Assembly (NCBI RefSeq): GCF_016097555.1
Contig: NC_054701.1
Coordinates: forward strand, 67,288,366 to 67,352,365
DNA from: Gigantopelta aegis
Lineage: Eukaryota
Length of the DNA: 64,000 bases
Reading direction: 5' to 3'
Shown: piece after piece, positions 26,296 to 27,824 of the stretch
Layout of the letters: every line of letters starts with the position of its first letter
How positions within the stretch are numbered: position 1 is the first letter of the stretch
Program-made: the position numbers and the translations under genes
Notes under the pieces: generated by a model
The model's input: the letters and a program-made list of their open reading frames with translations, nothing else
Told to the model about the DNA's origin: nothing
Databases searched by the model: none

Positions 26296-27824
26296 GACTG
26301 GACTGGAAACTCTATTAACGTGCCCCTATCCACGAAGGTTCAGGCACGCCCACTACAGATTTAGTCTCTGACTTCGCCAGTGACTAACTCCGGAGCAGGT
26401 GGGGGGGGGGGGGGGGTAAGTTTGAGGTGGGCGGAATTTGGAAAAAAGCCATTTAGTAAGGTCAACGCGAGCGCAGACCAAATAGCAGACACTTCGCAAA
26501 ATTGAAGTACACCGAGTAGGAGCCGTGTTCTGATTGGCTGAATTTCGATTCCTCGGTGAAGCCTGTATTTTACCTAAGTCTACAAAGAGTAACTGCCTCC
26601 AAATACATGTCCGGACTCTAAAATTTAACCCAAAATAGTTAAGACTGCTCAGCCAAAAGGTTTTTAAGGTGATTTTGAGCAATTGAACGGGCACCAAAGT
26701 AAAATGCGTTAGACTACTTATAAAAAAAATAAACATAAGAATTTTGAACTGCTTCCAAAACGTTTAAAGTCTAACTAGCCCAAAAAAAGATGTTGATACC
26801 TGTCCTAGGAAAGGTTGTTAGTGGGGATGTCGTCAAGGAGAGGTGATGAACAGGGTCGAATCCAGATGGTGGAGGGCATGCCAGTGTGTGGTCTTGGCGA
26901 TGCTCTCGGTGAGTGGACGGTAGTCTTCCCCGGCAACGGTCTTAATGACGCGGTGGATGGTCAGGTTGTCCATTTCATCGAGAAGCATCCCTTGGTGGAA
27001 AATTCCCCTCCGGCGAACGGTGAGACAGATGCCTCTCCCATCTTTCATCGTAATCCTGCGCACCGAGTACTCTCCTTCCGTCTGTGGCAGAGGTTGGTAC
27101 GTATCCTGTAATGGCTCACAGAGCAGCTGGCGAACGTCCCCAATGTTGGTCTTGACCAGCCTCGAATCACGCGTTGGTAGTTTGCCTGCCTGCAGTGACC
27201 AAGGCTGACCAGTGGGCGGATCTTCTATTGGCGGTGAAGTAGGTGTAGGCGGTTGTGTCGGTGGACTTGGCTTGGCTGGTTGGTCGCCTGGAGACACAAC
27301 CGCCTTTCGTTTTCCAACGGCCACAAGACGGGCCTGGGTCTCTACAGCGCCACTCTTCCTGGGTGGGGGTGGCATCGCTGGAATCTCGGGGGTTGAAGTT
27401 GTCGGAGTTGTGGGGGGCGATTCCATCAGGGCCTGGTTAAGGACCGTGTCCGCCACTGGCGAGTCGACAACTGGGTCCAGCAGAGCTGGAACAACTGGCC
27501 TCGCTGGTGTTGACTGGGGCTTGGGGTGTACAACGGGAAAAGTCGCCGCCGGTAGTTGAGCTACCGGTTTTGACCTCCCCCGGTCCGCCCCTGGTGCGTC
27601 CGTCTTCCTCCTCCTTCTCCTCCTGGGTGGTTTCTTTGCTGGGTCACCGTACACCAAGGTCACGGTTGCCCGTGGCCCGGTGTACGTGATGCGGTATTCC
27701 AACAGTACTCCGTATGAAGCAATGAGTCCCCCCAGGTGGGGGGGGGGGGGGGGGTAGCTCGAGAGAGCAGGCGCACACGTCCTGCTTCATCTTTGCCAAA
27801 AATCGGAAATGCAAGAATCGAAAT
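26296..27824. mobile_element. TE-like insertion of about 1.53 kb interrupting one unit of the 96-bp tandem family. The two breakpoints align with consecutive positions of an intact unit and carry an 11-bp direct repeat AACCATTAGGT. The 5' part belongs to a repeat family with copies at 22465-22740 and 10040-10140. The 3' part is GC-rich and carries the open frame above.
   Basis: Left junction is gtAACCATTAGGTctggactggactggaaac. Right junction is gAACCATTAGGTtgaatggaaagtaac. No terminal inverted repeats. (G)16-19 tracts at 26398 and 27738. Confidence 0.5.
26833..27702 (-). CDS. Open frame of up to 289 aa inside a GC-rich insertion. It is proline-rich with a basic PPRRRRRRK stretch, function unknown. 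The first codon in the ORF track is TTG, so the true start is uncertain.
   Basis: Long stop-free frame in a segment of about 60% GC, embedded in roughly 35% GC DNA. It sits immediately 3' of a (G)n tract. No recognisable catalytic motif. Plus-strand ORFs at the same locus look like antisense shadows. Confidence 0.35.
   Translation of the reverse strand: MEYRITYTGPRATVTLVYGDPAKKPPRRRRRRKTDAPGADRGRSKPVAQLPAATFPVVHPKPQSTPARPVVPALLDPVVDSPVADTVLNQALMESPPTTPTTSTPEIPAMPPPPRKSGAVETQARLVAVGKRKAVVSPGDQPAKPSPPTQPPTPTSPPIEDPPTGQPWSLQAGKLPTRDSRLVKTNIGDVRQLLCEPLQDTYQPLPQTEGEYSVRRITMKDGRGICLTVRRRGIFHQGMLLDEMDNLTIHRVIKTVAGEDYRPLTESIAKTTHWHALHHLDSTLFITSP

Follow-up and report, generated by a model that had tools for sequence, protein, structure and literature searches.

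A retroposon with a gene under purifying selection and no reverse transcriptase of its own in Gigantopelta aegis, probably mobilised in trans by a long interspersed element

Overview

A stretch of 64,000 nt from the genome of Gigantopelta aegis (contig NC_054701.1, positions 67,288,366 to 67,352,365; hereafter the window) contains an insert of about 1.5 kb that differs strongly in base composition from its surroundings. It is a mobile-element copy that arose recently and has stayed almost intact. With a probability of roughly 0.78 we read it as a full-length copy of a retroposon of ~1.3-1.5 kb that lacks reverse transcriptase (RT), carries a gene at the position of the first open reading frame (ORF1) and is mobilised in trans by a long interspersed element (LINE). 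The family is compact and possibly undescribed, though it may already have been reported under another name.

The insert interrupts a repeat unit and is flanked by a target-site duplication

The sequence AACCATTAGGT occurs exactly twice in the window and encloses an insert that spans 26293-27825 (1533 bp) and splits a single 96-bp repeat unit. The original prediction had set the bounds at 26296-27824; its size of ~1.5 kb holds, its end points are replaced by the measured ones. The two copies of the duplication are as follows.

26282 to 26292, no strand: left copy of the target-site duplication, AACCATTAGGT, located 3' of the element in element orientation; the empty paralogous site has a single copy
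27826 to 27836, no strand: right copy of the target-site duplication, AACCATTAGGT, a perfect 11-bp match to the left copy

The surrounding region belongs to a local segmental duplication (19736-22443 for the first copy, 23900-28140 for the second, 75-95% identity). The first duplicate comprises a tandem array of six 96-bp units (21510-22093), the second only one unit. Removal of the insert together with one AACCATTAGGT copy leaves a sequence that is colinear with the array units of this paralogous segment, and both the empty site and the target-site duplication are therefore genuine. This confirms the earlier assignment as a mobile-element insertion with target-site duplication. The studied copy was inserted later than the local segmental duplication.

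No terminal inverted repeats were found at the element ends, in agreement with the earlier view that this is not a cut-and-paste element. As in retroposons without long terminal repeats (non-LTR retroposons), terminal inverted and long terminal repeats are both missing, and the 3' end consists of a short tandem repeat. The coding part has a GC content of 59% and the 3' untranslated region (UTR) one of 44%, compared to 34-37% in the flanks and 36% in the window, as expected from the description of a GC-rich insert in AT-rich surroundings. The compositional anomaly is thus accounted for by an ordinary event, the insertion of a young retroposon.

The element carries one gene followed by a structured 3' end

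On the minus strand the element is made up of a 35-nt leader, an ATG with a gene of 318 codons, an AT-rich 3' UTR, two hairpins and a tail of the (CCAGT)n type; its ends read CATTTCG... and ...CCAGTCCAG. The following parts were distinguished.

27791 to 27825, minus strand: 5' leader of 35 nt, beginning with CATTTCG; related copies have CATTCC at equal distance from the ATG
27755 to 27790, minus strand: start codon (27790-27788) and first 12 codons, MKQDVCACSLEL; proteins P0001, P0010 and P0012 open alike
27738 to 27754, minus strand: C17 homopolymer within the gene, coding for poly-Pro; intact paralogues read MKQDVCSCSLELPPHLGGL
26833 to 27737, minus strand: main coding frame, which reads HLGG...ITSP over 301 codons and is closed by the stop at 26833-26835
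26417 to 26832, minus strand: AT-rich body of the 3' UTR, including a T8 run
26401 to 26416, minus strand: C16 tract in the 3' UTR (G16 on the plus strand); related copies keep a C-rich tract here
26349 to 26399, minus strand: 3' hairpin 1 of the predicted fold, a long interrupted stem with both-side changes in 9 of 21 pairs
26319 to 26348, minus strand: predicted 3' hairpin 2 (GCGTGCC...GGCACGT), immediately upstream of the tail, with compensatory changes in 3 of 9 pairs; part of covariance model R1 (see below)
26293 to 26310, minus strand: 3' tail, GTTTCC followed by (AGTCC)2AG; tails of related copies are similarly built from other units

The main frame encodes an N-terminal helix and hairpin and the basic patch RRRRRRK; a Pro-rich, disordered linker then leads to the C-terminal domain, which is folded and ~110 aa long. 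A long open frame on the minus strand had been recognised before, and the 289 aa given for it result from a mechanical TTG start: the stop-free frame comprises 317 codons (26836-27786), and the real ATG (27790-27788) lies in a different frame. The C17 run shifts this ATG by +1 relative to the 317-codon frame. Since intact paralogues read MKQDVCSCSLELPPHLGGL, the run is to be regarded as code for poly-Pro that must be 3k+1 long, and a run of 16 or 19 C would keep the frame open. This one-base shift is the sole defect of the gene in the studied copy and, since it is located within a homopolymer, may be a sequencing error. From ATG to stop the gene is complete apart from this shift, and no similarity to a gag family, an ORF1p family or a solved fold was found for its product, which argues against the proposed gag-like gene fragment.

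The original prediction also described two CAGGTG(G)16-19 tracts as bounds of a GC-rich block. The tracts are in fact G16 (26401-26416) and G17 (27738-27754) and bound neither this block nor a captured one: the latter is inside the 5' end of the gene, and the former is in the 3' UTR ~415 bp past the stop codon, which is itself ~540 bp away from the 3' end of the element. The T8 run in the 3' UTR makes transcription by RNA polymerase III (Pol III) unlikely. The idea that the C-run/G-run of the gene folds into a regulatory hairpin received no support (z = -1.9, +0.8 and -0.5), and inspection by eye revealed no match to a Drosophila-type downstream promoter element at +28.

Independent copies have the same architecture and different target sites

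Seven DNA loci from ENA assembly ERZ25071447 and from JGI sources were covered, and the layout was read in three of them (L001, L003 and L006). The copies there start at CATTCCAAAATTAG ~35 nt ahead of the ATG, with CATTCC as fixed 5' end. A GC-rich ORF follows, in which 7-21 C form a run near codon 12. The 3' UTR is AT-rich and contains a C-rich tract; two hairpins come next. The tails consist of GTTTCC(C) and two to three short repeat units that are specific for each copy.

The target-site duplication is TGAGCCATTT for L003 (9-10 bp) and TCCTCTGAAAT for L006 (11 bp). L001 harbours a head-to-tail dimer, in which ATTTTCA (at least 7 bp) is present before, between and after both units. Including the 11 bp in the window, the duplications are 7-11 bp long and differ in sequence at each site, as for non-LTR retroposons that integrate by target-primed reverse transcription, whose duplications are ~7-20 bp long and variable in sequence. 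According to these copies and to the selection data described below, the frame is conserved and duplications are present at other copies, two of the points on which the original prediction had made itself dependent.

Relatives that are truncated at the 5' end and share the 3' end are also present, at 22448-22640 in the window and, with the 3' end only, at L007 4650-4759, although this is a small sample.

Head-to-tail arrangements recur (L001 4290-6948, L007 3884-5382). In the L001 dimer the same 7-bp sequence flanks both units, although these are unlike in tail and in poly-C length. Possibly one target site was used more than once, or the duplications recombined with each other. Arrays with the same duplication flanking every unit are known for short interspersed elements (SINEs) of bivalves (PMC11481361). 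Judged by eye, the L003 copy seems to be inserted in the remnant of a mariner-type transposon.

The 3' hairpin module is supported by covariation and is shared with SINE-like repeats

Six copies from four distinct lineages were aligned over their last 100-110 nt, and two hairpins with 32 pairs were predicted from this alignment. In the predicted structure 92.7% of the cells are paired, compared to 25-41% when the partners are slid. Changes on both sides affect 12 of the 32 pairs, and the observed covariation was reached by none of 500 shuffles. For the 3' hairpins of the window copy a fold z-score of -2.4 was calculated. A covariance model of the module (R1) recovers every input copy and also matches six new sites in the window, which are listed below after the relative at 22448-22640.

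22448 to 22640, minus strand: 5'-truncated or ORF-less relative that has the C-rich tract and the two hairpins and ends in the tail GTTTC(AGTC)2; 82 bits with R1
38639 to 38738, plus strand: two-hairpin module that forms the 3' end of a ~270-bp SINE-like repeat
10043 to 10148, minus strand: further R1 site
15971 to 16079, plus strand: further R1 site
42427 to 42534, plus strand: further R1 site
14050 to 14154, minus strand: weaker R1 site
31562 to 31634, plus strand: weaker R1 site

The relative at 22448-22640 is 78% identical to 26296-26488 over 185 aligned bases in a span of ~193. A copy of a dispersed family near 22.4 kb had thus been seen correctly; the similarity is limited to 22448-22640 and does not extend over the ~450 bp that had been suggested. 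Four of the six new R1 sites (14050, 31562, 38639 and 42427) form the ends of related short repeats, three of which share ~260 bp.

Stringent-type LINE/SINE pairs show the same arrangement of hairpin and short repeats (PMC1636434, PMC4176376, PMC11481361), and a hairpin next to short 3' repeats that is common to unrelated non-autonomous elements is taken as a sign of dependence on a stringent-type LINE (PMC1636434, PMC4176376, PMC3747384). The covariation-backed stem-loops next to the tail of our element correspond to this arrangement.

The SINE-like family comprises 38470-38745, 42260-42540, 14050-14320 (minus strand) and 31562-31634, with purine-rich tails after the shared module. The 5' region of the repeat 38470-38745 looks tRNA-like by eye; ARAGORN calls no tRNA there. 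A second group that bears the module (10043-10148 on the minus strand, 15971-16079 on the plus strand) has tails of the (ACTC)n type. No match was obtained when JGI metagenome contigs were scanned for the module as a single, exact degenerate pattern.

The gene encodes an orphan protein family under purifying selection

A search of 5.8 billion proteins revealed 11 matches, all of them RefSeq models of G. aegis with 44-91% identity, and dozens of paralogues of the protein are located on at least 13 G. aegis scaffolds of different length. HMMER, run exhaustively against 1.84 billion cluster representatives, found 46 matches. Ten of these clusters were looked up, and each contained G. aegis models or proteins of ENA assembly ERZ25071447. 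One family member is also present in a JGI metagenome. A profile search with the C-terminal domain revealed no source beyond the two already found.

An alignment of 17 members (25-82% identity) has four conserved features. The N-terminal block reads LPPxLGGLxxxYGxLxEYRVxYTGSRATVTLVYGD and is followed by a basic patch. The Pro-rich linker is variable but contains the motif VExQAR..KRKA, and ~125 aa make up the C-terminal block. The N- and C-terminal blocks are kept between subfamilies at 25-47% identity. AlphaFold models the N-terminal helix and hairpin as well as the C-terminal domain with confidence (predicted local distance difference test score of 84 and predicted template modelling score of 0.79 for the latter) and the linker as disordered. 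The ratio of non-synonymous to synonymous substitution rates (dN/dS) between subfamilies of the ENA assembly amounts to 0.29-0.44, and changes at third positions are clearly in excess; for c2 versus L003 the ratio is 0.095. The ORF evolves under purifying selection. It had been proposed that a host ORF was captured by the element. The gene is however an integral part of it, since it has the same position and layout in diverged subfamilies (25-47% identity) and in a second assembly and is under purifying selection.

Neither a Pfam scan of the ORF nor searches of its product against PHROGs and PDB sequence profiles gave a match, and the earlier statement that no motif can be assigned to the frame stands. 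The absence of viral matches, in PHROGs (0 matches) and in a Foldseek search of BFVD structures (none at E <= 0.001), also speaks against the view that the insert is an endogenous viral element, as had been considered, or else a contaminant or an assembly chimera joined at poly-G. The sharp jump in GC content and the two long G runs could be read this way, since homopolymers are error-prone. One of these runs, however, encodes a poly-Pro stretch that is conserved in paralogues, and the other is the C-rich 3' UTR tract that is conserved in relatives. The duplication is perfect, the paralogous site is empty, related copies are present on many scaffolds, and independent copies elsewhere have the same architecture. 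We consider a viral or artefactual origin highly improbable.

Many G. aegis RefSeq gene models (P0001-P0011, P0021, P0024, P0032 and P0043) are misnamed copies of the element ORF. Their unrelated names (opioid growth factor receptor-like, FtsK-like, IF-2-like, extensin-like, argonaute 14-like) are due to the Pro-rich low-complexity region only, and in other models the ORF is joined to a real gene (N-acylglucosamine 2-epimerase-like, organic cation transporter-like). The misnamed and fused models are likely annotation artefacts, and several RefSeq models of this species thus turn out to be copies of one mobile-element gene.

The number of such models, the selection on the gene and the well-folded domain that is predicted for its product would also be expected for an expanding family of host retrogenes, whose mRNA acquired a LINE-type tail by chance and whose protein serves the host. 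We regard this as unlikely: the names are Pro-rich artefacts and some models are fused with unrelated genes, copies frequently carry frameshifts or truncations, follow one another head to tail or lie inside other repeats, and the fixed 5' and 3' ends together with the duplications indicate that the whole unit multiplies and not the gene alone.

A divergent member, P0039 (23-25% identity), is encoded at L002 5001-5705. No R1 module can be recognised downstream of it, and this copy is either old and decayed or a relative with another organisation.

The element encodes no enzyme for its own mobility

No RT or endonuclease domain was detected by Pfam in the element ORF or in the 116 ORFs of at least 70 aa in the window, where solely host domains were found. 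The element hence encodes neither RT nor an apurinic or restriction-like endonuclease and is not an autonomous LINE, in agreement with the original prediction, which named a non-autonomous element among its candidates. No RT or endonuclease is located upstream of any R1 match in the related loci. A fragment of a LINE RT in L006 (1247-2528, minus strand) was considered as partner; it has no R1 module downstream and appears unrelated.

Several known classes were compared and rejected. A SINE, which would be non-coding, shorter than ~700 bp and headed by a Pol III region from tRNA, 5S or 7SL, is ruled out by the length of 1533 bp, the 318-codon gene and the internal T8, and no tRNA or other RNA family was found. 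The ORF has no detectable homology to L1 ORF1p (coiled coil, RRM and CTD; Pfam Transposase_22), as would be required for HAL1 or another L1-derived half-LINE. A HeT-A-like ORF1-only Jockey element is not supported either, since zf-CCHC is missing and the copies are interstitial with target duplications. A Helitron would insert between A and T, leave no target duplication and have the ends 5'-TC...CTRR-3', in contrast to the ends of the element and its 11-bp duplication. No hammerhead ribozyme was found with Rfam at E up to 1 in window positions 20-32 kb and in L001 and L003; with RT and GIY-YIG also missing, the element is neither a Penelope-like element nor a retrozyme.

Head-to-tail arrangements are common for Penelope-like elements. 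Such dimers occur in the present family, and no donor enzyme was found, so a Penelope-like element or another non-LINE RT could be considered as donor. The element and its relatives have no hammerhead ribozyme and no terminal repeats, however, and a hairpin with short-repeat tail in common with SINE-like repeats is the classical LINE/SINE arrangement. Arrays with identical duplications are moreover known for ordinary SINEs (PMC11481361). We therefore rate a non-LINE donor as improbable.

Closer to our reading, and nested in it, is the view that the element arose by internal deletion, once or recurrently, from an autonomous LINE, and that its ORF is the ORF1 of that LINE. The order of leader, first ORF, 3' UTR, hairpins and tail is that of a LINE minus ORF2, and there are precedents in HAL1 (PMC5753468) and, as cited in PMC11481361, in the short internally deleted elements (SIDEs) of CR1. 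On the other hand, the compact RT-less layout recurs in diverged subfamilies and in two genomes, and dN/dS is ~0.3 between subfamilies; both indicate a persisting lineage. None of the 46 relatives of the ORF was seen joined to RT or adjoining it. Such a derivation is possible, though we doubt it.

Some of our data weigh against the element being a LINE-mobilised retroposon. Architecture and duplications are documented for one G. aegis copy and for several copies in the second assembly, and the purifying selection could equally mirror a function for the host. Neither the 64-kb window nor ~58 kb of related loci revealed a partner LINE with the R1 module, and for this reason we only infer mobilisation in trans and the clade of the donor LINE.

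Putative mechanism and comparison to known systems

If the element is mobilised by a LINE, RNA polymerase II (Pol II) would transcribe it from its first bases. A stringent-type LINE enzyme would recognise the 3' hairpins of this mRNA and copy it by target-primed reverse transcription, starting where the target is nicked. The copy-specific tail would arise when the enzyme slips on the terminal GTTTCC. The protein, with two folded parts and a basic disordered linker, may have a role like that of ORF1p: it may bind and escort its own RNA, support nuclear import and help to compete for the borrowed enzyme. The position of the gene, the Arg/Lys patches with the disordered linker and the selection suggest this role, for which homology gives no indication. 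Tentatively, the family may even represent an old, self-sustaining mollusc lineage of protein-coding "super-SINEs" that never needed an enzyme of its own. An orphan-fold protein without relation to any known ORF1p or gag would then package the mRNA, capture the ORF2 protein of a LINE and compete with the tRNA-SINEs that bear the module.

HAL1 ("half-L1") of mammals is non-autonomous, has only the first ORF and depends on the ORF2 protein of a LINE in trans (PMC5753468). Both HAL1 and the putative lifestyle of our element thus combine a non-LTR retroposon that kept only the first ORF with RT from a LINE. HAL1 has a genuine L1 ORF1p, a poly(A) tail and relaxed recognition, while our element has no detectable homology to L1 ORF1p and ends with a structured hairpin module and a short tandem-repeat tail. 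ORF1-only elements at Drosophila telomeres form lineages that persist and have founded new ORF1-only lineages (bioRxiv 10.1101/2025.06.09.658640). Like our element, HeT-A and its ORF1-only telomeric relatives of the Jockey clade encode only a Gag/ORF1 protein and form head-to-tail copies; they rely on the RT of another element, as ours probably does. They are, however, telomere-specific, several kb long and encode a zinc-knuckle Gag, in contrast to a dispersed element of 1.5 kb with internal target duplications and an orphan protein. The element would work like HAL1 or HeT-A, without homology to either, and its structured 3' module shared with SINEs is a further difference.

In stringent-type pairs the LINE recognises a stem-loop upstream of the short 3' repeats, and the tail arises by template slippage (PMC1636434, PMC4176376, PMC11481361). 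Examples are UnaL2/UnaSINE1 of eel, ZfL2 of zebrafish and mollusc SINEs with CR1, CR1-Zenon, L2 or Nimb tails. The element resembles such partners by the conserved stem-loop directly before short 3' repeats that is common to the non-autonomous partners. Unlike the partner SINEs it is neither a Pol III unit nor non-coding: it bears a gene under selection, is 1.5 kb long and is likely transcribed by Pol II. The SIDEs of CR1 in Lepidoptera, as far as described in the citation in PMC11481361, keep the LINE ends and use the machinery of the parent element; they are short and non-coding, whereas the present family keeps a full gene under purifying selection.

A compact, dispersed RT-less family is thereby described outside of mammals and of Drosophila telomeres, with a selected protein and a well-defined RNA recognition module. 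It constitutes a small, tractable system for the question what a non-enzymatic retroposon protein adds to the hijacking of a LINE.

Other features of the window

Beside the studied element, the second segmental duplicate holds another additional insert, a block of ~1.19 kb (25051-26240) with imperfect inverted repeats of 30 nt (25182-25211 and 26075-26104, 77%). This block may be another transposon insertion. The region 40000-41250 is a strongly skewed block of low complexity (GC content 0.475, AT skew -0.78, GC skew -0.37). It gives rise to long ORFs that overlap on the two strands and probably consists of a satellite or simple repeat. Further G/C homopolymers of 13-20 nt are located at 24596-24626, 28915-28934, 30842-30871, 30929-30950 and 31348-31367; where G/C runs are this frequent, errors in homopolymer length could distort any ORF call.

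A dispersed repeat, GCAGCAAGGGATCTTTTAT...CCCACAGGCAGGATAGCACA..., is present at 20000-20172, 22871-23039, 23038-23095, 24056-24113 and 29699-29724, with some inverted pairs ~2.7-3 kb apart (arms of 101 nt, 87%). Its translation was found at the N-terminus of protein P0080 from ENA assembly ERZ25071447, which suggests that the source of this assembly is also a mollusc.

Host-type domains in ORFs of the window are RNF34/RFFL-like (E = 7e-20 and 6e-11), Lyase_1 (9e-9) and the C-terminal domain of ARMET (ARMET_C, 3e-4). With host-type exons present, the window is a genic region, in which the insert may have an intronic or intergenic position.

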